Of a DNA stretch of 64,000 bases, positions 7,261 through 44,126 are shown one piece after another. The notes beneath the pieces are model-generated. The model worked only from the letters and a program-made list of their open reading frames with translations. It did no database searches and was not told the origin of the DNA. The DNA comes from an uncultured Candidatus Saccharibacteria bacterium (GTDB taxonomy: Bacteria; Patescibacteriota; UBA1384; XYA2-FULL-43-10; 1-14-0-10-43-13), in the NCBI GenBank assembly GCA_964543385.1, contig CAZIYE010000001.1, forward strand, positions 127,143-191,142, written 5' to 3'. How positions within the stretch are numbered: position 1 is the stretch's first letter; each line of letters starts with the position of its first letter. Both the position numbers and the translations under genes were made by a program.

Positions 7261-7289
7261 TTGACAAACAGTGACTTTACGTTTATAAT
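7261..7289 (+). promoter_or_regulatory. sigma70-type promoter with consensus TTGACA, 17-nt spacer and TATAAT
   Basis: Both hexamers are exact consensus matches and lie about 95 nt upstream of the ATG at 7386. The leader contains a hairpin (AAAGCGCCA...TGGCGTTT). Confidence 0.45.
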
Positions 7290-17290: not shown

Positions 17291-20200
17291 CTACTCGGAT
17301 AAGTTAACTGGCTTACCTTCCTCAAGATGTTTATGATCGGCAATATTATGAGTATTATTAACAATTAAGTCCTTATCCTGCTGTGCGGATACTTCCCTGC
17401 TCTCTTTCACTGCAGGCACAGATATAAAAACATTTTCCTCTGCTGAAATAATAGATGTCTGTTGCGTCGATAATGCTCTCGACTCCGGTATTATCGGCAA
17501 GTTCTGACTATTATCAGGCTTCTGATTATCAGCAACTAGATCAGGCTCAGTCTTACTTTCGGTATCAGGTGATTGCTTTATATCTTTATTTAAATGACTG
17601 GAATCATTCTTTTTTTCAGCATTTTGATCATTGGAGTGATGTTTATCATTCGCTAACGACCCATTCTTATTTTTCTGGTCATGATGCATACTTTTTGGAT
17701 TCTTCTCGGTCTTTTGATCGGCAACTTTTCGAGATAGATCAATAATCTTTTGGCCGTTATCATCTATAATTGTACCTGACTTTTCTATTTTTTCTTTATC
17801 AATTTCTTCGCCCAAATACCACTTCACTCCCCCTCTAGCAGTGCGTTCCTTATAAATTTTACCATGCAAGATATTATCGTACCTAATAACACGAGGCTCC
17901 TTTTTTTTCTCGATCTCCCCCACCTCGCTATCTGCAGTAGTAACATCAGCATTGGATTGATTAGAGCCAGAAGCTACTTCAGGCTCGGCAGCAGCTAAAT
18001 TAACTACAGTTTTCGACTCTATTTGCTGAGATAAAGGAGCAGCCGCTGATATACTAGTGTTAGCAGTGTTTGTAGCAGCATGAGTAGTAATAGGAGTAAC
18101 TACGGGGGCAGAAACAGGAGTATGTGTAGTAGGAGCTGGTCGGTCGTGCTTTTTCAAAAGAATTGCCTCCAGACCACCCTTTTTAAAAGCCTCTGCTTCA
18201 GCTTTCAATTCATGTTCTTCCTGGGTACTTCGACCGCTTATCATCTCCTCGACATCAACACGTCGAGTAGAATAAGTAGCGTGAGAATGCTCAATAACCT
18301 TTTGAATATTGCCTGTTAATCTCTGTACTGGTGGTAATGTTTTGGCAGAAAATGCGGGAGCAGCAACACCATCAACTAACAATTTGATATAGATATTAAA
18401 TTTCTCAAGATTCAAAAGATCATTGGTTGTGAAAACTGGCTCAAACTCTTTTACCAAGACATCTGCATCAGCTCCACCTACCCTAAATGAAATAAGCGTA
18501 CCAGCGTTACCAAAGATCGCATCTCTAAGCTCTTCCGGAAGCTGTGTTATGTACTGGTGAGCCATCGTTAGACCGAGACCGTATTTTCTGGCTTCTGACA
18601 ATATCACTGCAAAAGCTTCTGTTGCAAAGTTCTGAAACTCGTCCACATATAAGAAGCAATCGGGGCGTTTATCCACAGTTACATTTGCCCGACTCATAGC
18701 TGCGAGCTGAATTTTAGTAATCATCATAGCACCAAGCAGTGCAGAGTTATCTTCACCAATTTTCCCCCGAGATAGATTTACAATCAATATCTTTTCCTGA
18801 TCCATTATCTCTCGGATGTTTATCCGTGATTTTGGTTGACCAACTATATTTCTAATTGTTGAAGAAGAAAGAAATTGACCGACTTTGTTTAGAATTGGTG
18901 AAACGGCTTCCGTTCTAAATTTATTATCAAATGAAGCAAACTCATTCATCCAGAACTCTTTAATAATAGGATCTTTGACATTTAATAAAACATTGTCCCT
19001 AAAGCGATTATTTGTTAACATTCGCGGAATATCAAGCATGGTAGCCCCCGGATGATCAAGAAGAGCCAAAACCGTGTTTCTAAGAATATGTTCCAGTCTT
19101 GGACCCCATGATTTATCGAAAAGTTTTTTAATAATACCAATAAAACCAGAGGCGACTAATCCCTTGAAATCATCGTCAACAGTTTCTAGAAGATTAAAGG
19201 CAATTGGAAAATCGCGATCCGAAGGATCAAATACTATTACATCATTTACTCTCTCATCTGGTATACAAGATAAAACTTTTTCAGCAAGTTCTCCATGAGG
19301 ATCAACAACAATAACACCAGATCCCTTGCATACATCGTTTATCGCCATATTCTCAATCAAAACAGATTTACCTACACCAGATTTACCTACAAGATAAATA
19401 TGTCTTCTTCTATCGTCTCTCTTAATACCAAATTCAGTGAAAACATTGCGAAAATTAGTCATGCCAATAACCGTAAAATCCTCTGGCGGAATATTTGACC
19501 TAATTGGTAAATTTGCTGGCGGTTCACCCTTTTTCGAACCAGACCACACAATATTAGGTGTTGACACGGTGCTAGATGGAAAATGGAATAAAGATGCAAG
19601 CTCGGCGATATTAAATATATTGCCATCATCCTCGAAAGAACGACCGACATAATCTTGCCAAAGAGTATGGTCATTCGACTTTATCTCCCCTACTCTAAAA
19701 CCATTTAGATTTGTTGTATTAAACTGTTTAAAAGCAGCGCAAACATTTCGACACTTTAATTTGGCCGAGGTTGGATCTGTGCCCAATGCAACTATTCTTA
19801 TCTTTGTCTCAAAACCTAATTTTGTAATTTTTTGCTCAATTCCCTTCAAAGCTTCCTCGACAGAAGCCTGTAGTTTGATATCTTTCTTATCATCTTTTTC
19901 GGAATAACCAGGATTAACAGCCTGAGACAAAAGACCCTTACCAACATTAGTAAATTCCTTTAGGAGAAGATTTGCAAAACCAAGTTTGGCTGTCGGCTTG
20001 CCACCAGATCGGACTGAATTTACCCTCGTATGCCCCTTTTCCTGCCAACGGTCACCCTTTGGTCTAATTATCATCTGAAACCAAATTTCTTCTCCTGCGC
20101 TCAATTGTGACATTACAGAAGTAATCGCTGAGATTGGGTCAACTTCGAAGTCTGTAAATTGCTTGATAGGATATACATCGGGCTTTGTAAGCGCTAATTC

Positions 20201-20614
20201 AGTAATTGCAAAATTCTTTGATTCAACATCTGGCCGAACTGTATAATCCTCAACTTCATGAATTTCAACATTCGGATATTGAGCGTAGACCTGCCCTTCA
20301 ACAAAATCCTTCAAGTGAACTGGCAAATAGACGAAAAACTGTATGAATTTTTCCTTGGAAATAATCTCAAAACTTAAATGATATTGAAATTTAGCACTCT
20401 CTGAATAGATACCATGAATTGTAGCGAACATCTGTTCGGCAGCCATCGGTGATTTCTCATTCATCCTAGGCACATCTATGCGAATAACGGTGTATTCCTG
20501 TGATGTCATCCACTGTATCTTCTTCATTCTATGATTAATACGAAAAATCGCCCATATCAAATAGATTGGACCAAAAATTAGAATAATATATAAAAGGTAT
20601 AGGATAAAAGACAT
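17291..20614 (-). CDS. membrane-anchored VirB4/VirD4-superfamily (HerA/FtsK-fold, DUF87/TraG-D_C-like) ATPase with a roughly 350-aa low-complexity C-terminal tail
   Basis: N-terminal TM helix. Walker A is GKSGVGKS, followed by a VVDPHGELAE motif. Walker B is FLYVDEFQNF, and the ARKYGLGLTMAHQY motif resembles TrwB/VirD4/VirB4 motifs. The C-terminal third is K/D/N/S-rich and predicted disordered. Confidence 0.6.
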   Translation of the reverse strand: MSFILYLLYIILIFGPIYLIWAIFRINHRMKKIQWMTSQEYTVIRIDVPRMNEKSPMAAEQMFATIHGIYSESAKFQYHLSFEIISKEKFIQFFVYLPVHLKDFVEGQVYAQYPNVEIHEVEDYTVRPDVESKNFAITELALTKPDVYPIKQFTDFEVDPISAITSVMSQLSAGEEIWFQMIIRPKGDRWQEKGHTRVNSVRSGGKPTAKLGFANLLLKEFTNVGKGLLSQAVNPGYSEKDDKKDIKLQASVEEALKGIEQKITKLGFETKIRIVALGTDPTSAKLKCRNVCAAFKQFNTTNLNGFRVGEIKSNDHTLWQDYVGRSFEDDGNIFNIAELASLFHFPSSTVSTPNIVWSGSKKGEPPANLPIRSNIPPEDFTVIGMTNFRNVFTEFGIKRDDRRRHIYLVGKSGVGKSVLIENMAINDVCKGSGVIVVDPHGELAEKVLSCIPDERVNDVIVFDPSDRDFPIAFNLLETVDDDFKGLVASGFIGIIKKLFDKSWGPRLEHILRNTVLALLDHPGATMLDIPRMLTNNRFRDNVLLNVKDPIIKEFWMNEFASFDNKFRTEAVSPILNKVGQFLSSSTIRNIVGQPKSRINIREIMDQEKILIVNLSRGKIGEDNSALLGAMMITKIQLAAMSRANVTVDKRPDCFLYVDEFQNFATEAFAVILSEARKYGLGLTMAHQYITQLPEELRDAIFGNAGTLISFRVGGADADVLVKEFEPVFTTNDLLNLEKFNIYIKLLVDGVAAPAFSAKTLPPVQRLTGNIQKVIEHSHATYSTRRVDVEEMISGRSTQEEHELKAEAEAFKKGGLEAILLKKHDRPAPTTHTPVSAPVVTPITTHAATNTANTSISAAAPLSQQIESKTVVNLAAAEPEVASGSNQSNADVTTADSEVGEIEKKKEPRVIRYDNILHGKIYKERTARGGVKWYLGEEIDKEKIEKSGTIIDDNGQKIIDLSRKVADQKTEKNPKSMHHDQKNKNGSLANDKHHSNDQNAEKKNDSSHLNKDIKQSPDTESKTEPDLVADNQKPDNSQNLPIIPESRALSTQQTSIISAEENVFISVPAVKESREVSAQQDKDLIVNNTHNIADHKHLEEGKPVNLSE

Positions 20615-20743
20615 TTAAACCTTCAATAAATCTGGGAAGGATAATATTCCTTCTAACAATATTATATAAGAGATTAGATTTTTTTGCAAAGAGATCGAAG
20701 ATAAAAATGACCTTTTGCGGCCGTAAAGCGCCATGGCAAAGGA

Positions 20744-30221: not shown

Positions 30222-30912
30222 GGTGTTCTCCCGCTGTATGGTGGCGACCCGCTCGATTGTGAATTTTTTTATTACCGAGCAAACAAGATAGAAAAGTGTA
30301 AATTCAGGCGCTCAAAAGCGCCGTTTAAGCGTAATTTCTACTCTCTTTGCTCAGTAATACTATTTAATTGTTAAGGTACTTTGTGCTCATATTCACCCTT
30401 TTAGGGTAAACAAAAGGCGACACTGTTCTGCATAACTCGATAGGCGGAGGGGGAACCTATTTCCCTGATAAATCAGGGAAGTTGAGCTATGCAGGACGCT
30501 GCCGCCTGCATATTGACCACTTATATTAGATACTGACTCTGTTTCCTCCATCGTGCAGTTGTCTATTATTAGTTGTCTTTGGGATTGTTTTGATACTTGC
30601 TCGGCCACTTTCCTAACCGTGCATATTTATATTATACAATATTTATTTTAATTTGTCAATAGATATTGATACTTTCTGTGACAATATGCTGGCAATCCAT
30701 ACGGCCGGAGGGGGGGGCCGTATCTACAATTAAATGCTAGGATTACCAACATGCTGGCACAGACTTAATACAAATCAGACTCATAATTTGTTACTATTTA
30801 TTCCTCCTGAGAATTCCACCTCGCCTACCCTCAGAACATCGCATTGTAACATAACAAAAATACTTTGTCAAGACGAATCCCAACAAAGTATTTATATCAG
30901 ATTAAAACAGCA

Positions 30913-31206
30913 CTACAAATTGGAAATTTCGTCTCTGATTCTTTTTAGCTCGAAGCTTTTGTCTACTTCACTCTCTATATTATCCAGCTCCTCTAAAGAT
31001 TTCTTTATCTGCAGTAGCTCTGTTATATAGGCTTTATTTATATTATTACTCAGCTCTATATACTCTTCAACAAGATTCACATAATACTCACCCTGATCCT
31101 CTTTCGTCCATTCGGAGTTAATAAATGTCTTGAGAAGCGCTTTAGCTTCATCGTATTTCCCTTGGCTAAGCAATTCGTTAAATTGAACATTATCTAAATT
31201 TGGCAT
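30913..31206 (-). CDS. hypothetical protein
   Basis: 97-aa helical ORF. Confidence 0.35.
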   Translation of the reverse strand: MPNLDNVQFNELLSQGKYDEAKALLKTFINSEWTKEDQGEYYVNLVEEYIELSNNINKAYITELLQIKKSLEELDNIESEVDKSFELKRIRDEISNL

Positions 31207-31225
31207 AATTTGCCTTTCATAAAAA

Positions 31226-32536
31226 TTAAATAGTTTTGACTGCTTGAGTTCTTCCTAGCATCAATGTCAGTTGTGCTGCTCTAGGTGAACTCTTCTCCGC
31301 AACTGGTATTGCTGTAAGCTCAGCCTGTATGACACTCTCCATCATATCTCTGGCTGCCTTGTTACTGATATTGGCATGGAGAAAGTTATTAAATTGTCCC
31401 ATTTTTGTAGTGCTGATAGCCCTTGCGTCTTTACCCAGATCAGCTGATGACGTAACTTCTCTTTTATAAACCTCAGTCATCATTTTTTGCATTTCTGCAT
31501 CAAATGCTGGATCGCTACCGCCCCATACATCACCCATTTCATCTAGAGTTGAAGCTGCATCATCGGTATCGAATACCTTATCTTTAGCTTTTTTGCCCGG
31601 ACCCTTGATGATGGCATCTTTTGCTATCTTTAAGAGAGTATCGCGTAGAGTATCAAAATCCTCTAGGTTATCCAATATCTCTTTGCGGGTAACACCAATT
31701 TGTTCAGTAAGGGTAGCTTTCTCCGTTGCTTTGACAGCGATATCTTTACTAGCCTCTGCTAGTCCCTTGATCCTTTCATCTAATTTTTTCTGAGAAAGTT
31801 CATATTGCTGTTTTTCAGCAAGCTCTCCATCTGACAATCTTTGTCTACCAAAAGATCTTAGAGTATTTTTAAATCTACCCCACCCGTTGAATCTTTCTTT
31901 ACCGATTTTATCTTTAGCATCAGTATAAGCTGTTTCATTACCTGTTCTTACATCTGCCCCCTTATCCGCTTGAAGCTGCCAAGCAGCAGCAGTCTCAGTA
32001 AGACCCTCTTGAGTTAATTGGTGGTCCTTCAATTTATATTTAGATTTTAATTCCTGATCAATCTTCTTTGCATCATCAGTAAATTTATTGAAATCATCAA
32101 TCAGTTTCATATATTTCTCAGCGAAGTCCGGATCAGTTGCAGCCTTTTTGCCGAGATGAGATTCTATAGCATCACTAGCCTCCTTGAGGTTATCACCTTG
32201 AATAATCTTTAGCTTGCCTACAAATTCGTCAGACAAGAATTTCTTGAATTTATCCAAGGCAGGCTTAATCTTTGTATCATAATTTTCTGCCCAACTTGCA
32301 ATCTCAGTAATATTGCCAGCCCCTGCTAAATAAGCGTTCATATCCAGGCTCTTTTCTTTTTGCGCTCTTGCCTGAACATATGCAAAAAAACCAGGGTCTC
32401 CGAGCTTGGCCTCGACATTTGCCTGGTCATATAGATTTGCATTTTCAGTGGAAATATTCCCCATCTCCTGACGAACGTCAGCCTCTGGAAGACTTTGAGC
32501 GCTTGGTACATCGACACTATATTTTCCCTCTACCAT
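31226..32536 (-). CDS. hypothetical coiled-coil protein
   Basis: 436 aa, K/D/E/A-rich and helical. Confidence 0.4.
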   Translation of the reverse strand: MVEGKYSVDVPSAQSLPEADVRQEMGNISTENANLYDQANVEAKLGDPGFFAYVQARAQKEKSLDMNAYLAGAGNITEIASWAENYDTKIKPALDKFKKFLSDEFVGKLKIIQGDNLKEASDAIESHLGKKAATDPDFAEKYMKLIDDFNKFTDDAKKIDQELKSKYKLKDHQLTQEGLTETAAAWQLQADKGADVRTGNETAYTDAKDKIGKERFNGWGRFKNTLRSFGRQRLSDGELAEKQQYELSQKKLDERIKGLAEASKDIAVKATEKATLTEQIGVTRKEILDNLEDFDTLRDTLLKIAKDAIIKGPGKKAKDKVFDTDDAASTLDEMGDVWGGSDPAFDAEMQKMMTEVYKREVTSSADLGKDARAISTTKMGQFNNFLHANISNKAARDMMESVIQAELTAIPVAEKSSPRAAQLTLMLGRTQAVKTI

Positions 32537-35508: not shown

Positions 35509-36336
35509 CTACTTCTTCGCAACCTTGATACCAGGACCCATGGTTGTCGATAGATAAATCGAATCAATTCTTTTAGGCAGGTGATCAATAATTGCCACAA
35601 AATTCTGTTTCATTCTATCTGCGCCAAACGATATTTTACCGATAGTCATATGAACAACATTCAATTTATCAGCTCTAAATTCAACTTTACCCCCCTTTAA
35701 TTCTGCTGCTGCTTTTTTAACATCAGGAACTACGGTACCAGCTTTTGGAGAAGGCATTAGGCCTTTAGGACCTAAAACTTTAGCTAGTTGTGCTAATTTT
35801 GGCATTACCTTCATATCAGCAATCATAACATCAAAATCGATTTTTCCAGCTTTGATATTGACTATAACCTCTTCTACATTATCTTCAATAACTTCCAATA
35901 CTTTTTTCTCTTTGGTTACGCCACCTGGCAAGATTACCATGCCACGAGTATTTTTTTCCTTGATGTTTAATTTGACATGCATTTCTACGGTTGCATCAAA
36001 CTTTGAAGGATTTGTTTCGAGGGCAAGAGCAATAGCCTCATCTACAGAATATTCTTTATCTTTTTCAACCTTTTCAGCGATTTGGCGATATTTTTTGCCA
36101 TGTCTAGGCTTTACCCTTTGCTGTACTTTTCTAGCAATTTTTTCCTCACGCTCTTCTGCTTTTTCCTTCTTCTCTTCTGCTTTCTTTTCTTCCTTCTCAG
36201 CTTCTTCTTGCATCTTGCGCAATTTCTCACGCTCTTCTGCTTGTTTTAGAACCTCTTTTTCCGAAAGTTCGACAGTTGCTTCTTGTACAACCTCTTCTAG
36301 GACTTTCTCTTCCTTTTTCACATCTTTCTTAACCAT
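35509..36336 (-). CDS. rplA: 50S ribosomal protein L1 with a roughly 70-aa Lys/Glu-rich N-terminal extension
   Basis: L1 core (GMVILPGG..., GPKGLMPSPKAGTV). The N-terminal about 70 aa is a KEEK/AEEKKEK low-complexity region that typical L1 lacks. A candidate promoter TTGTCA-17-TATAAG lies upstream. Confidence 0.85.
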   Translation of the reverse strand: MVKKDVKKEEKVLEEVVQEATVELSEKEVLKQAEEREKLRKMQEEAEKEEKKAEEKKEKAEEREEKIARKVQQRVKPRHGKKYRQIAEKVEKDKEYSVDEAIALALETNPSKFDATVEMHVKLNIKEKNTRGMVILPGGVTKEKKVLEVIEDNVEEVIVNIKAGKIDFDVMIADMKVMPKLAQLAKVLGPKGLMPSPKAGTVVPDVKKAAAELKGGKVEFRADKLNVVHMTIGKISFGADRMKQNFVAIIDHLPKRIDSIYLSTTMGPGIKVAKK

Positions 36337-39610: not shown

Positions 39611-41152
39611 TTATTTTTTCAAGAGTGAAAGCATCTTTCTCGACTTAACATAGTAAATCGATAACATACCTGTCAGAGTGAAAAGTAAGCTTAATAGCGG
39701 TGTACTTGGTCCAGTCATTGGCAAAGCTGGAGTGACTGCTATAGGAGTTACAACAATTTTTGTTTTAGCGATATCATTTAAAGTCTGATTATCAAACCGA
39801 AGAGTTGCAGTGTTCACTAGTATTTCTCCAGTTGCGATTCCAGATGATATTTTAACTTTAAATTTGATAATGCCGTCTTCATTTTTGCCCAAAGAACCAA
39901 TTTTGATTCCATCAAAGATAGCCTTGTTACCTAAAGCGGTGCTAACACCATTTCTGATAAGAGAAGCACTGCCATTTACAAATGAAACATTTGCAGGTAA
40001 AACATCGCTTATTGTAATGTTATCAGCTTTTTCACCAGAGTTTGCAAAGAATATCTGATATTCCAGAACATCTCCGGGTTTAGCTTGATTTTCTTTCGAA
40101 AAGCCAGCCTCGTTTATAGTAACGTTTCGAACTGATTTCTCAATTCGCAGCGTTGGTTGACCAGGAATTATCTTGCCGATATTTACAAAAACTAAGTTTC
40201 CATAAATATTTTCCATAATACCATCGAAATGTTTTCCGTCTTGGGTATTTGTAGGCTGAGGATTCTTAACTATTACCTTAAAGGTCCTTACGTTTGTCTC
40301 TCCTGCAACAATTCTAACTGCAGGGTAGCTGATTACACCGTTTGACAAAGTACCACCGATTGAGGCGCTAGTAAAATCTGCCAGCTCTAAGATATCGCTT
40401 ATGTCATCAGTGACAGTGAAGTCAGTTGCTGCATTTCCTGTGTTCTTTGTCGTTAGAGTGTAAAGAACCTCATCACCCGGATTTGCTGAAATATTTACGC
40501 CCTCGGCGCCAGATACTAAATTCTTAGCAATCTTACTCTTTACTATATTTGGTGTAGGCATTTTGATTGTCTTGAATTGAAACAAAACATATCCAATATG
40601 TTCCCAACAACCTCTTACATCACCTATTTTTAATCCACCAGTAGTGAGAAGTTCATCGCCATTCTGGCTAAATAAAAGGTCAGACGGAGGAGTACCAAAA
40701 CTTTTAAAATCTGGAAACCATTGTACTGATCCAGGAATCATAACTACATTTGCATCTGTATCTAGATTGACAGTTAAACTGTCAAAAACAGTAGAGGCGT
40801 TATCTGCGGAAATTGCAGTATTGATAACTATCTTTTTGTTACTTGACACTGAAGGCAAGCTAACTTTGACTCGAGTATCACGAGCTGTGGTATCTACTAC
40901 GCCATTGTGGTAGTAAATAATTGCTGCAAAAGTATCGCCAGCAAGACCATCAACTGGTTTACGCCACGAAACTTCACCTGCAGACTTGTTTGCACCACGT
41001 ATTTGTTGAAGATCATCTTTCAAGTAATTGAACCTTGGACCAGATGCATTTACAGACAAAGCCGGTGCGATTAATTGTGATAGCAATGCAGAAACAAGCG
41101 CTATTCCTAGCACTTTCTTCCACCCTCCAGTGATTTTTTGGATCAAATTCAT
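39611..41152 (-). CDS. LPXTG-anchored cell-surface protein with DUF11-type repeat domains
   Basis: Signal peptide; DUF11-like beta-repeat segments (NTGNAATDFTVTDDIS, ANSGEKADNITISDVLPANVSF); C-terminal LPMTG followed by a hydrophobic segment and a KSRK tail, which is a sortase sorting signal. Confidence 0.6.
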   Translation of the reverse strand: MNLIQKITGGWKKVLGIALVSALLSQLIAPALSVNASGPRFNYLKDDLQQIRGANKSAGEVSWRKPVDGLAGDTFAAIIYYHNGVVDTTARDTRVKVSLPSVSSNKKIVINTAISADNASTVFDSLTVNLDTDANVVMIPGSVQWFPDFKSFGTPPSDLLFSQNGDELLTTGGLKIGDVRGCWEHIGYVLFQFKTIKMPTPNIVKSKIAKNLVSGAEGVNISANPGDEVLYTLTTKNTGNAATDFTVTDDISDILELADFTSASIGGTLSNGVISYPAVRIVAGETNVRTFKVIVKNPQPTNTQDGKHFDGIMENIYGNLVFVNIGKIIPGQPTLRIEKSVRNVTINEAGFSKENQAKPGDVLEYQIFFANSGEKADNITISDVLPANVSFVNGSASLIRNGVSTALGNKAIFDGIKIGSLGKNEDGIIKFKVKISSGIATGEILVNTATLRFDNQTLNDIAKTKIVVTPIAVTPALPMTGPSTPLLSLLFTLTGMLSIYYVKSRKMLSLLKK

Positions 41153-41375
41153 TTTTTTCCTTAATCCTCTAGCTAAAAGCTATCGGCACTTTCATAATTG
41201 TTATTACTTTTTTAAATTTAACTCTCTATATATATTAATAGCCATTATGGTTAGCAATTGCAATGGACTCATCTCCGAAAGTATGAATAAATCATAACTT
41301 CGGGATGAGGGGGTGCGCGCCTTTCAACAGGCACCCCGCTCAAGTTAGTTGCCACCGGGTACGGTGGCGGGCGTC

Positions 41376-42140
41376 CTAATACGGGACGCCAGGTTCGGGA
41401 ATCGGCCCCGCACCAGGCCAATGCCCACAGCTCTGGCTCGTCCCCCCACAAAACGGGCAGCGGAATAGCCATAGCAGGCCAAGCCGCCACTCCATCACCG
41501 GCTCTTTCTGCCAGAATGGCATCCGGTCCGGGGTGAGTCCCGACTTGGCGAAGCAAAGCTTTGATATGATCACTGCTTGCTGTTCGCGGGTTGGGAGCGG
41601 CTTTTGTGCAGCCACCGTTGGCTTATCGAGACTGATCGCCTCGAGGCACCATTGGTCGACAGTGGCAGTTGCCATGACGCCGGTATACGGCAGCTTTTGA
41701 GGGCAAATAATCCGGACATACCAGTCAATACGTGTGAGTAACTGCGTAATGATCTGGTATGCCAGGTCGACTTCTTCAAACGTCCTGCAGAGGTAGATCG
41801 GGGTGTGGATGATGTCCAGTTGGAGCATCAGCACAAGCCCATTCTTCACTGAAGGAGTCATATGTCGACCCTTCTTTGCCCAATAGCAACGGTAACGCTC
41901 GATTTCGGCGTAGTCATACGCCGTTAACGTGCGCTTTTCTGCGACCCGCTGAACGGTAACCTTCACCCAATCGCATTGCTGCGAAGAATAGGTTTGTCCA
42001 TCCGAAGTCCAGGAAGGAACAGTCGGTGCCGGCGTGGTTGCCGACTGAGTGCTTGCTTGCGGCACTCCCGCGTTATTACCCATCTCGGCCATCACCGGCA
42101 AGCCGGCAAGGACGAGAATCAGGGCCATGATCATTTTCAT
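41376..42140 (-). CDS. secreted hypothetical protein on a high-GC island
   Basis: The start was moved to MKMIMALILVLAGLPVMA (a signal peptide) preceded by an AGGAGG RBS. GC is about 55-58%. Confidence 0.4.
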   Translation of the reverse strand: MKMIMALILVLAGLPVMAEMGNNAGVPQASTQSATTPAPTVPSWTSDGQTYSSQQCDWVKVTVQRVAEKRTLTAYDYAEIERYRCYWAKKGRHMTPSVKNGLVLMLQLDIIHTPIYLCRTFEEVDLAYQIITQLLTRIDWYVRIICPQKLPYTGVMATATVDQWCLEAISLDKPTVAAQKPLPTREQQAVIISKLCFAKSGLTPDRMPFWQKEPVMEWRLGLLWLFRCPFCGGTSQSCGHWPGAGPIPEPGVPY

Positions 42141-42151
42141 CTGCACACCTC

Positions 42152-43444
42152 CTAAAGCGGCAGGACGATGACGTTTGAAACGCCAGGGCGGTAAGTGATC
42201 ATCTCTGACCAATTCCGACCATCAGTTGAATATTTCAGATTATATTCATATGACACGAGGTTTCCATTCACACGCTCACCGATGGCAGCATTGTTTATAG
42301 GAATATCCCCAGGAGCATATGGACCGAAGACTCGCCCTTGCGGGTAAGCACGATCATACAATCTAATCCACACCTTCTTTGAAGTGCGGAAGCAGTAGTT
42401 TCCATGGACCACTTCTGTTTGTTTCTGAGTGGTAACGGAAGACGATATGCCGGGTGCCGGCGCTTTGAGATACTCGATGACTTGCACCAGGGTTAACTGG
42501 TGATTGGCAACGAGTTGCCTTAAACGCTGAATCTCGGCCTCGGTTTTACCCGAGTTCCGAGCGACGACTTGAATCGCCTCCCAAACCTTCAAGTCAAAAG
42601 CTTCACAAGCAGCCACACGGGCTTCAAGATTGGCAATTTGGACAAGAAGACTGGAATCATCGTAGGCAGGAACAGAAGTGATGCCTCCACCAGTCAGCCC
42701 AGTACCGGTACTACCCATCGCCTTGTCATTGGCAAGTAAGGTCTCGAAGACGAGCCCGTTACCACCATTGCCAGCGCGACGAAGCAGATCGGTCAAGTAC
42801 TGAACTGAAGGAGCGGAACAGTTGGCAGGCCAACACTCCGTTTTGAAGCGGAGAGTGTCGACCATTGCTGACAGGTTAGTTTTTCCTGCCCACTTGATCT
42901 TGAAGAGGATCAAGTTTATAGCTTTGTCGTTGCGTTTTCCATCCTGGACCAACGCATAGAAACGGAAGCAATGCAGATCAGCACCAACAGCTACCTCAAG
43001 AGGCATCTCTAGGTACCAGCGCCCGCCAGCGTCCCGTTTGAGAACCAGCACACCCGGAGTTGTAAACGACCAGGTATTGGTCCTGCGATCATAGCTATAC
43101 TCGAGCTTTTTCTCTAGCTCGCCTTGTGCAGCGACCATCGCCACCACCGGCATGTCAGCGAGGACGTTAGGGTATACCTTCATGGTTGCCCCAATCCCCA
43201 CAGGAAATGTGCCGAGGTACGAGGTCTCTGCCTCGTCCCATTGCCAGGTGACTGCTTGCGCATAAGTCACCTGCACCTGGACTTTTCCACTGGTAACCTG
43301 CTGCGATGCCTGTTCAGTATAGACCGGACCGTCTAGGACGGCACCAGTTGCACCGAATGGAGCAGCACTTGCTGGCGTGATTGCCAGCGCGCCAACCATT
43401 AAGGTCAGCAATACGAGGCCAATTACGGCCAGCGGGTTACGCAT
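42152..43444 (-). CDS. secreted hypothetical protein on a high-GC island
   Basis: The start was moved to MRNPLAVIGLVLLTLMVGALAITPASA (a signal peptide) with an AGAGGAGGA RBS. GC is about 55-58%. A strong hairpin sits in the 5' leader. Confidence 0.4.
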   Translation of the reverse strand: MRNPLAVIGLVLLTLMVGALAITPASAAPFGATGAVLDGPVYTEQASQQVTSGKVQVQVTYAQAVTWQWDEAETSYLGTFPVGIGATMKVYPNVLADMPVVAMVAAQGELEKKLEYSYDRRTNTWSFTTPGVLVLKRDAGGRWYLEMPLEVAVGADLHCFRFYALVQDGKRNDKAINLILFKIKWAGKTNLSAMVDTLRFKTECWPANCSAPSVQYLTDLLRRAGNGGNGLVFETLLANDKAMGSTGTGLTGGGITSVPAYDDSSLLVQIANLEARVAACEAFDLKVWEAIQVVARNSGKTEAEIQRLRQLVANHQLTLVQVIEYLKAPAPGISSSVTTQKQTEVVHGNYCFRTSKKVWIRLYDRAYPQGRVFGPYAPGDIPINNAAIGERVNGNLVSYEYNLKYSTDGRNWSEMITYRPGVSNVIVLPL

Positions 43445-44126
43445 CTGCGTTCCTCCTCTTTCATTTTTGGGGTACCTCTCGCCACCAGGCGAGGAGGTAC
43501 CTGATTGCAAGAAAATTGAGACGATTGGATTGCTCCGATTTCGTCTGCAAGGAAGTATTATTTATTCGAGATCAATTGATAGCTTTTATCTGCCTACTTC
43601 TAGCTATCACTCGAAGAATAAATTCTTCTATTGCAGCTGAAATTGCTTCTAAACATTTTCACTGATTTTTATTCTATTTGATTTTTAATTGCCATTTTTT
43701 AGCAATTCATAAATTATCTATAGTTGAAATAATTTATTTTTGTGAGATTTTATATATTTTACAATTTTTAAATATACTATTGTGACTTCAATCGCCTTTT
43801 GCTTTCTTAAATCCAACCAGGAAGAAGGCGAGAAGTGATAGAAGCTAACATGGCCAGGTCCACTTATTTTAAGGAACCTCTCTGCCGGTTAGCCGGAATG
43901 CCTATCACCCTAATACCCCTAAATCCCAGTCGGATTTAAGAAAACAAAAAAGGATCGTCAGCGATATATTTGGCACTTAAAGACCAATGATCGCCGCCCC
44001 ATCCTTTTGTCCACCGCACATAGTATTCCTAAGTGTGGTAGTAATTAACCCCTTGTTAGCTTAGCGCTAACTTAACTACTGACAAATTTTAGCACCTTTG
44101 CTTGACTTTGTCAATAGTTTATGGCC

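Follow-up and report, generated by a model that had tools for sequence, protein, structure and literature searches.

A structured RNA family with an invariant C-rich hairpin loop encoded downstream of tgt in Patescibacteria

We report a structured RNA of ~95 nt that constitutes a new, previously undescribed family of the Patescibacteria (Candidate Phyla Radiation, CPR, bacteria). The RNA was found in a DNA stretch of 64,000 nt (from here: the window; 38.7% GC) from an uncultured Candidatus Saccharibacteria bacterium, contig CAZIYE010000001.1, positions 127,143 to 191,142, which carries genes for divergent ribosomal proteins, tgt, DprA, type IV pilins and TraD/VirD4-like ATPases. It is encoded on the minus strand of a 691 bp spacer (30222-30912, window coordinates) flanked by an open reading frame (ORF) of 97 amino acids (aa) (30913-31206, minus strand) and an ORF of 236 aa (29511-30221, minus strand). 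We are nearly certain that this spacer holds a genuine conserved structured RNA. It occurs here in two copies, and each unit is modelled as a three-way junction of the helices P1, P2 and P3 with a C-rich apical loop, NCCCCCUCC.

An earlier note on this DNA had proposed, from the letters alone, that the minus strand may encode a structured RNA with a C-rich hairpin loop, resembling the anti-Shine-Dalgarno (anti-SD) sequence, as functional feature. This central idea is upheld. What the note took for a single small RNA (sRNA) turned out to be two tandem units of ~90-95 nt plus separate downstream elements in a 5′ untranslated region (UTR), and its two G-rich motifs are, read on the minus strand, the equivalent apical loops of the two copies of one conserved RNA family.

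Patescibacteria account for a large share of bacterial diversity. As far as we know, hardly any regulatory RNA has been reported from them, few regulators are recognisable and they are believed to be largely without Hfq. The family presented here supplies 39 sequences, a covariance model, a defined fold and an invariant anti-SD-like loop that can be tested. Its fixed locus adjoins fast-evolving surface-protein genes and a pilus- or type IV secretion system (T4SS)-like cluster, the sort of functions that are thought to mediate the episymbiotic lifestyle.

Fold, covariation and functional strand

According to the model, P1 is a long stem interrupted by a conserved 2 × 2 internal loop, P2 is a variable hairpin, frequently capped by UUCG, GCAA or AUUUAU, that is purely structural, and P3 is a hairpin of 6-8 bp capped by the 9-nt loop. 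The loop NCCCCCUCC is common to all 39 aligned members, with every position invariant except the first; CCCCCUCC is invariant in 39/39 members and the surrounding stems covary. Such a combination, a 9-nt single strand that stays constant above helices that covary, marks a recognition element and is what one expects of a seed. The context of the P1 internal loop (A-U/G/G-C/U-A) is nearly invariant as well. Each homologue, folded by itself, showed this one architecture. P2 is lacking in three members (L015, L209b and L215a; L numbers designate related loci) and L011b has an additional hairpin. Two divergent upstream copies scoring ~31 bits, at 3551-3618 of L227 (minus strand) and 1954-2021 of L244 (plus strand), have no P2 and possess the loop UCCCCUCC with one C fewer. 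Because these two copies carry CCCCUCC, we regard this sequence as the minimal conserved loop core.

Covariation was evaluated in two alignments, A1 with 38 sequences by RNAalifold and the alignment to covariance model R1 with 39 sequences. RNAalifold detected compensatory double changes for 27/29 pairs of A1. Comparing related spacers for compensatory changes had been suggested before, and in the R1 alignment 26/29 pairs change on both sides, compared to 8-14 for slid partners. Standard pairs filled 96.8% of the cells versus 24-44% for partners slid by 1-3 columns, and the covariation score was 0.631 versus 0.05-0.12. None of 500 shuffles reached the values of the R1 alignment in any of these three measures.

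The spacer contains three perfect hairpins of at least 8 bp, compared to 0.11 ± 0.33 expected from 1000 dinucleotide shuffles, none of which attained three. Folding of the whole spacer yielded z = -8.3 for the minus strand versus -4.3 for the plus strand. For the core elements of copy B (the terminal unit) and copy C (the upstream unit) folded alone, z was -7.2 and -8.5 on the minus strand versus -6.0 and -3.3 on the plus strand, and in both copies the minimum free energy (MFE) fold equals the family consensus. Model R1 has exactly two matches in the window, both on the minus strand: copy C with 67.5 bits (E 4.5e-13; no plus-strand match at E ≤ 0.1) and copy B with 78 bits (E 1.1e-15) versus 26 bits on the plus strand. 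Since G-U pairs are frequent on the minus strand, e.g. as the P3 closing pair in 32/39 members, this is the functional strand and the molecule is an RNA.

Coding capacity was considered for a 71-aa ORF at 30393-30608 and rejected. None of the ORFs inside 30222-30912 had a Pfam match, the element lengths are evenly spread modulo 3 (16/12/11) and 7/39 members have stops in all frames.

It is hardly credible that the spacer has no RNA function and consists of stacked terminators, chance palindromes or a DNA element, such as a repetitive extragenic palindromic element (REP), a miniature inverted-repeat transposable element (MITE), an attC site or an origin of transfer (oriT) of the T4SS-like cluster. 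The convergently ordered same-strand genes on the flanks, the TraD/VirD4-like genes nearby and the plus-strand hairpins (z = -4.3) would fit such an element. The RNAalifold, covariance-model and covariation results effectively refute it; G-U covariation is restricted to one strand, the units have their own promoters, and the 97-aa gene, which has a terminator of its own, is absent from most related loci that still keep the RNA. Stacked terminators of the flanking genes, the outcome that the earlier note had named as fatal to its proposal, are excluded by the separate hairpin of the 97-aa gene at 30858-30893, by the missing U-tract of copy C and by the promoters of both copies. A dispersed REP/MITE or an integron attC was rejected on account of the single locus (one in the window, one stretch in a 799-kb scaffold, no match in a plasmid collection) and of the strand-specific G-U pairing, which points to RNA and not DNA.

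Identification and distribution of the family

When the proteins of the two flanking ORFs were looked up by exact match, every contig retrieved was 100% identical and of the same strain, and thus of no use for covariation. Therefore, TGT was used as the anchor in a collection of species-representative genomes. Its closest relatives have 54-71% identity and all stem from metagenome-assembled Patescibacteria, labelled Berkelbacteria, 'Saccharibacteria' or Patescibacteria group. The 436-, 97- and 236-aa proteins of the window showed no detectable conservation in these TGT-anchored loci, though the spacer was conserved. With nhmmer, its minus strand was recovered on the tgt strand and 3′ of tgt in L007 (E 3.5e-15), L006, L010, L012, L011 and L013, with a weak match in L009 (E 0.69). 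Copy B was matched in L006, L007, L010, L011 and L012 at E ≤ 0.005 and again weakly in L009 (E 0.69). The conserved core corresponds to 30393-30513 and a second, paralogous core to 30675-30763.

Independently of tgt, a two-part DNA pattern (the conserved P1 5′ strand plus P3) was scanned over a metagenome collection. The scan yielded 53 stretches, of which the covariance model kept 20 and rejected 33 as chance. Three of the accepted stretches were L006, L009 and L011 again; the other 17 bring the total to 27 loci. Across these 27 Patescibacteria genome or metagenome loci, which hold one copy or two in tandem, R1 has 39 strong matches of 51-87 bits. It matches one locus only, both in the window and in each of the 10-21 kb related loci, and because the pattern matched one stretch only in the 799-kb scaffold, the RNA is probably a single-locus gene. 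As far as sampled, the family is confined to one Berkelbacteria-like clade of the Patescibacteria. A blastn search of the plasmid collection with 29400-31300 gave no match, and the matches listed in a scan of viral contigs with the 15-mer GGTNCCCCCTCCGCC are probably chance.

Searching Rfam 15 at gathering score with cmscan returned 0 matches for the whole window, and nothing at the RNA for seven related loci. A permissive scan of 30100-31000 (E ≤ 10) yielded 11 matches at noise level, RsaE not being among them, and text searches on the loop sequence and on structured RNAs of CPR bacteria turned up no description of this RNA family. On architecture and for want of an Rfam match, we rejected 6S RNA, signal recognition particle RNA, transfer-messenger RNA and RNase P RNA as well as the preQ1 riboswitch, which was considered for the tgt neighbour. 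A TGT substrate mimic was discarded because there is no UGU loop, and a type III toxin-antitoxin system (ToxI-like) because the product of the downstream gene is secreted or membrane-bound and has no Pfam or NCBIfam match to ToxN/AbiQ-type toxins. The family could enter Rfam and thereby improve the annotation of CPR genomes.

Organisation of the locus

The elements of the locus are, 5′ to 3′ on the minus strand:

30858-30893, minus strand: terminator-like hairpin after the 97-aa ORF, a 16-pair stem followed by TTGTTATGTT; overlaps the -35 element of promoter 1; outside the RNA family
30843-30871, minus strand: promoter 1, TTGACA-17-TACAAT with TG extension, 11/12 match; would drive copy C
30801-30837, minus strand: G-rich 5′ leader motif GUUCUGAGGGUAGGCGAGG...CUCAGGAGGAA, with GGAGG, similar to an SD sequence, in its 3′ part; could fold into a hairpin, P0
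30675-30763, minus strand: RNA copy C (upstream unit) with P1, a short P2, P3 (30699-30723) and loop CCCCCCUCC (30707-30715)
30631-30659, minus strand: promoter 2, TTGACA-17-TATAAT, 12/12 match; would drive copy B
30509-30630, minus strand: copy B leader, ~115 nt past the predicted start site, containing GAUGGAGGAAAC (30541-30552)
30488-30512, minus strand: alternative hairpin UAUGCAGG-N9-CCUGCAUA, mutually exclusive with P1 of copy B and absent from the MFE fold
30414-30508, minus strand: RNA copy B (terminal unit) with P1 (30415-30438 with 30484-30507), P2 (30461-30480), P3 (30440-30460) and loop UCCCCCUCC (30446-30454)
30408-30415, minus strand: U-tract UUUUGUUU directly 3′ of copy B P1; P1 and tract together resemble an intrinsic terminator
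30392-30410, minus strand: small hairpin UUUACCC-UAAA-AGGGUGAA, with the terminator U-tract as 5′ arm
30359-30380, minus strand: conserved block AGUACCUUAACAAUUAAAUAGU of 22 nt between terminator and downstream gene
30275-30354, minus strand: 'clamp' hairpin, part of the 236-aa gene 5′ UTR, base GAGCAA(A/G)/(C/U)UUGCUC conserved, interior hypervariable, tip GGCGCTCAAAAGCGCC
29511-30234, minus strand: SD sequence GGGAG and 236-aa gene with signal peptide and C-terminal transmembrane segment, 59.6% GC

Four hairpins had been quoted before and all were found in place:

30307-30322: hairpin GGCGCTCAAAAGCGCC
30461-30480: hairpin TTCCCTGAT-AA-ATCAGGGAA
30488-30512: hairpin TATGCAGG-N9-CCTGCATA
30699-30723: hairpin ATACGGCC-GGAGGGGGG-GGCCGTAT

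They do not all coexist in one molecule and one fold. As parts of the RNA, two of them stand: TTCCCTGAT/ATCAGGGAA is P2 of copy B and ATACGGCC/GGCCGTAT is P3 of copy C. The other two do not, as TATGCAGG/CCTGCATA rivals the conserved P1 and is itself unconserved, and GGCGCTCAAAAGCGCC is the lineage-specific tip of another hairpin. The G-rich motif GGAGGGGG occurs twice on the plus strand, as the note had seen, at 30446 and 30707 (261 nt apart), with no further occurrence on this strand in the whole window.

The promoters and terminators given here are consensus matches and the RNA ends are predicted from them. Sigma-70 sites matching at least 11/12 positions are rare, with only 8 in 128 kb (both strands of the window), and two of these precede the RNA copies; perfect 12/12 sites number only two in the 64 kb, promoter 2 and 7261-7289 (plus strand). 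A homologue of promoter 1 aligns in L013. TTGACA-17-TAnnnT lies upstream of the first copy in 22/27 loci, 8-141 nt from the core (in L010 by a wider scan only), and a second promoter between the copies is present in L007, L009, L011, L209, L227, L231 and L244. In most loci a U-rich tail comes after the terminal copy, though it is weak in L255 and L258; L009 and L013 have none. First copies of tandem pairs are usually without U-tail, as is copy C in the window, the exceptions being L009, L011, L209 and L217. The features listed for an independent sRNA gene, namely its own promoter and an intrinsic terminator (both as consensus matches), non-coding character and a conserved seed, are all present.

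In the leader, GUUCUGAGGGUGAG is conserved in most first units; the leader motif may also be rendered GUUCUGAGGGUAGGCGAGG...CUCAGGAGG (30837-30801). Compensatory changes in P0 were seen by eye in a subset of sequences only, RNAalifold found no consensus structure in a MAFFT alignment of P0, and the window copy alone had z = -0.8. G-rich tracts recur in the leaders homologous to that of copy B.

Downstream of the RNA, hairpins with a U-arm and an A-arm analogous to the one at 30392-30410 were found in L006, L010, L211, L215, L239, L244, L245 and L250. The block AGUACCUUAACAAUUAAAUAGU was aligned in the window, L006, L009, L220, L231, L239 and L250; it contains a TTGACA-like hexamer without recognisable -10 element. 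The clamp hairpin is present in 9 loci with interiors of different length, the whole hairpin measuring 48-232 nt. Block and clamp hairpin together form a second conserved non-coding module, which might serve for processing or for the binding of a regulator.

TGT is encoded upstream on the same strand in 22/27 loci, including 13 known through the RNA pattern alone; in the remaining 5/27 loci less than 1.5 kb of upstream sequence is available. Insertions, e.g. the 436- and 97-aa genes of the window, fall between tgt and the RNA. Both of these neighbours are lineage-specific, and the 97-aa gene is missing from most RNA-bearing related loci. On the other side, wherever the downstream sequence could be read far enough, the RNA is followed at 117-430 nt by a gene on its own strand that encodes a low-complexity protein with signal peptide. 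This gene is usually GC-rich and in L012 pilin-like. Genes for a large membrane protein, a DUF5663 protein and a VirD4-like ATPase often come next; they are not found within 9 kb in L009.

Possible modes of action

The RNA is probably a regulatory sRNA because its loop NCCCCCUCC resembles the anti-SD sequence of the ribosome. As the explanation that we tentatively prefer, the copies may be paired sibling sRNAs whose loop pairs with G-rich SD regions. From the motifs described above we infer that transcription, driven by strong housekeeping-type promoters, would begin ~70 nt before the core of copy C and ~115 nt before that of copy B and would be terminated by P1 of copy B together with UUUUGUUU. 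The predicted products are an RNA of ~220 nt from promoter 2 and a two-loop RNA of ~430 nt from promoter 1. The exposed loop would then pair, loop to single strand, with G-rich ribosome-binding sites (GGAGG, best GGAGGGG) and translation initiation would be blocked. The RNA could act in trans, possibly also on the envelope-protein operon directly downstream.

The loop carries the anti-SD core CCUCC and additional Cs, so that it can pair with GGAGG and has its best complement in GGAGGGG(G). The canonical 3′ tail of 16S rRNA, ...CACCUCCUUA, prefers GGAGGUG, so that GGAGGGG would suit the sRNA loop better. In the window, the best loop complement is the SD sequence CGGAGGGGAUAAUG (also given as CGGAGGGG) of two type IV pilin genes at 59377-59889 and 60189-60701 (minus strand), with which the loop and its closing G could form 8 bp. 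Both genes encode the N_methyl motif, and their ORFs plus the first 40 upstream bases are 96% identical. Further candidate SD sites are CGGAGGGU of the 947-aa second operon gene and GGGAGGGA of DprA.

Several findings weigh against this reading. Duplex energies computed against 61 start regions of the window merely rank strong SD sequences, GGAGGG at SD positions (6/14 versus 12/47 elsewhere) is not clearly enriched, and no conserved target emerged from the window and ~250 kb of related loci, in which SD sequences of the GGAGGGG type precede unrelated genes. The pilin lead was not repeated in L012, the sole related locus with a pilin-like gene, where the SD sequence is the canonical AAGGAGGUG. 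A loop that matches every SD sequence offers little specificity, near-consensus promoters suggest constitutive and not regulated expression, and the transcripts and their ends are predictions. Finally, the fixed orientation upstream of one gene class, the conserved UTR elements and the lack of a recognisable promoter in between suit a cis-acting leader equally.

Because no conserved target emerged, three other readings are live besides that of SD-pairing siblings. The first of these is unlikely, yet to be reckoned with: the RNA would act in cis, as 5′ leader or attenuator of the envelope-protein operon that comes after it, and transcription either stops at P1 and the U-tract or reads through into the genes for the 236-aa protein, the large membrane protein and the VirD4-like ATPase. 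Read-through would be set by a factor binding to the loop or by folding of the three-way junction, and the terminated product could also act in trans, as riboswitch-derived sRNAs do. The same-strand signal-peptide gene that starts 117-430 nt past the RNA speaks for a leader, as does the window, where the interval from copy B to the 236-aa gene showed no sigma-70-like promoter and contains the conserved block and the GAGCAAG/CUUGCUC clamp hairpin. Moreover, tandem units that share one terminator at the end are reminiscent of riboswitch aptamers in tandem, and since insertions lie between tgt and the RNA, the RNA keeps near its downstream gene. However, there is no conserved antiterminator: the 40 nt upstream, compared with the P1 5′ strand, gave a mean z of 0.0 over 27 loci, and the sole candidate in the window, UAUGCAGG/CCUGCAUA, is unconserved. 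Independent units are suggested by several loci in which a second full promoter separates the copies and a U-tract follows the first copy (L009, L011). The distance to the downstream gene varies, and L009 has no VirD4-like cluster within 9 kb.

Rather unlikely, in our view, is a protein-binding RNA that serves as sponge, scaffold or decoy, with the C-rich loop and perhaps the P1 internal loop as recognition site. Multiple copies would raise titration in a manner similar to CsrB/RsmY, here with a C-rich motif rather than GGA motifs. The loop is more invariant, and the P1 internal loop more nearly so, than a helix requires, as is usual where a protein or a tertiary contact is involved; the consensus promoters hint at high abundance of the RNA, and a conserved mRNA target was not found. 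Against this stand the absence of a conserved neighbour gene for an RNA-binding protein and the single motif per unit, while known sponges have many.

An improbable variant of SD recognition is an abundant anti-SD mimic, in which CCCCCUCC, with the core CCUCC of the 16S 3′ tail, would be presented on a rigid three-way junction as a genome-wide SD competitor and global translation throttle. Such a decoy, a housekeeping-level RNA, would operate in ultra-small episymbiotic bacteria. Constitutive near-consensus promoters, the invariant loop, one locus per genome and the lack of specific conserved targets are compatible with it. Still more speculative would be its export through the neighbouring pilus or T4SS-like machinery onto host mRNAs.

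Quite improbable, finally, is a self-contained pseudoknot or riboswitch-like sensor in which the loop pairs with a G-tract of its own leader (GUUCUGAGGGUGAG, GGAGG). G-rich tracts do recur in the leaders, and loop-to-leader duplexes have a mean of -11.1 kcal/mol versus -8.0 kcal/mol for equal-length downstream sequence (mean z = -1.0 versus shuffles). However, the effect is weak, with z < -1 in only 47% of the units, the best site lies 19-118 nt before P1, and L217, L007 and L209_0 have no good complement. The loop never varies, so that its covariation cannot be assessed, and no association with metabolic genes hints at a ligand.

Comparison with known RNAs

In RNAIII of Staphylococcus aureus, the UCCC motif is located in the apical hairpin loops H7, H13 and H14 that contact SD regions, and in Helicobacter pylori a C/U-rich loop of RepG pairs with a homopolymeric G-repeat in the target 5′ UTR. 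These are unrelated RNAs from other phyla, and the likeness to them is one of principle only. Binding of G-rich SD regions by C-rich UCCC/CCCC loops is described for RsaE/RoxS, LhrC1-5 and RNAIII (PMC4132741, PMC6158497), with a role of the UCCC motif of RNAIII in mRNA target binding (PMC4132741).

The earlier note had likened the C-rich loops to those of the RsaE/RoxS type. RsaE/RoxS (RF01820) of Bacillales is likewise a small, highly structured, terminator-ended RNA, conserved most strongly in C-rich loop or unpaired motifs that pair with G-rich SD sequences and thereby block initiation (PMC6158497). Membership in that family does not hold, since there was no Rfam match even at E ≤ 10, the architecture is different, with a three-way junction whose P1 serves as terminator stem, and the phylum is Patescibacteria and not Firmicutes. 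In RsaE/RoxS the C-rich motif is duplicated within one RNA, whereas here the whole gene is duplicated and each unit has one 9-nt loop with the full anti-SD core CCUCC. Neither a match to the covariance model nor at least two C-rich motifs in one RNA of ~100 nt were found.

In Listeria monocytogenes, UCCC loop motifs of LhrC1-5 bind the G-rich ribosome-binding site of cell-envelope protein mRNAs (lapB) and the copies act additively (PMC4132741). LhrC1-5 comprise several homologous copies, some in tandem, and the 1-2 tandem copies beside genes for secreted or envelope proteins described here share the property of several copies without homology. LhrC RNAs have three UCCC sites per ~100 nt and two stem-loops and are LisRK-induced in envelope stress, whereas our RNA folds differently and has one invariant loop and housekeeping-type promoters close to consensus; neither an Rfam match nor three UCCC sites per RNA were found. 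Tandem riboswitch or attenuator leaders resemble our locus in having a structured 5′ element, a U-tract, a fixed gene class downstream and sometimes two units. They differ in that our locus has no conserved antiterminator, no apparent multi-strand pocket, promoters between the units and a hairpin loop as the sole invariant single strand.

Because of the likeness to the C-rich-seed and multicopy sibling RNAs of Firmicutes, and because every homology test failed nonetheless, we assign the RNA to a new family of the C-rich-seed sRNA kind. If the loop pairs with ribosome-binding sites, the strategy of a C-rich loop directed against SD sequences, familiar from low-GC Gram-positives, would be independent or ancient in Patescibacteria.

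Further observations on the window

The 236-aa protein has a signal peptide, is Pro/Thr/Ala-rich and C-terminally anchored, and looks like a rapidly evolving surface protein. Its gene has positional counterparts in L006, L007, L009, L013, L211, L220, L227, L231, L239, L250 and L252, which have the architecture in common and, to judge by their Arg/Pro-rich off-frame translations, the GC bias too, with almost no sequence likeness. The sole detectable counterpart is that of L220, with 38% identity over 77 aa. Further downstream, the conserved cluster at 17291-29298 (minus strand) encodes a 947-aa membrane protein, a DUF5663 protein, a 351-aa protein, a VirD4-like ATPase (DUF8128 + T4SS-DNA_transf), a 170-aa protein, a second TraD-like ATPase of 1107 aa and a 342-aa protein in which sigma-70 region 4 and an RNA polymerase delta-like domain form an unusual fusion.

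On the tgt side, a homologue of the 97-aa protein (33% identity) is encoded between tgt and the RNA in L249 (6971-7240) in inverted orientation, and therefore the gap between tgt and the RNA is an insertion hotspot for small accessory genes. Logan contigs of run SRR12261225 end or start inside copy B (~30415-30444) with an overlap of 30 nt, which indicates a branch of the assembly graph at the RNA, caused by co-existing strain variants or by cross-talk between the two copies.

After the second perfect promoter of the window, TTGACA-17-TATAAT at 7261-7289 (plus strand), comes a leader able to form a hairpin (AACAAGAGTTCTCTTGTT) and then a 133-aa ORF. The uL1 ORF at 35509-36336 (minus strand) comprises 275 aa and its family match begins at residue 78, with a score of 184.7 versus the NCBIfam cut-off of 216.3; it has either an N-terminal extension or a mis-called start codon. 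A second GC-rich island (~50% GC) at 41000-43500 contains ORFs of 278 and 452 aa (minus strand) with an 11/12 promoter at 44114-44086 and may be another pair of GC-rich surface-protein genes.

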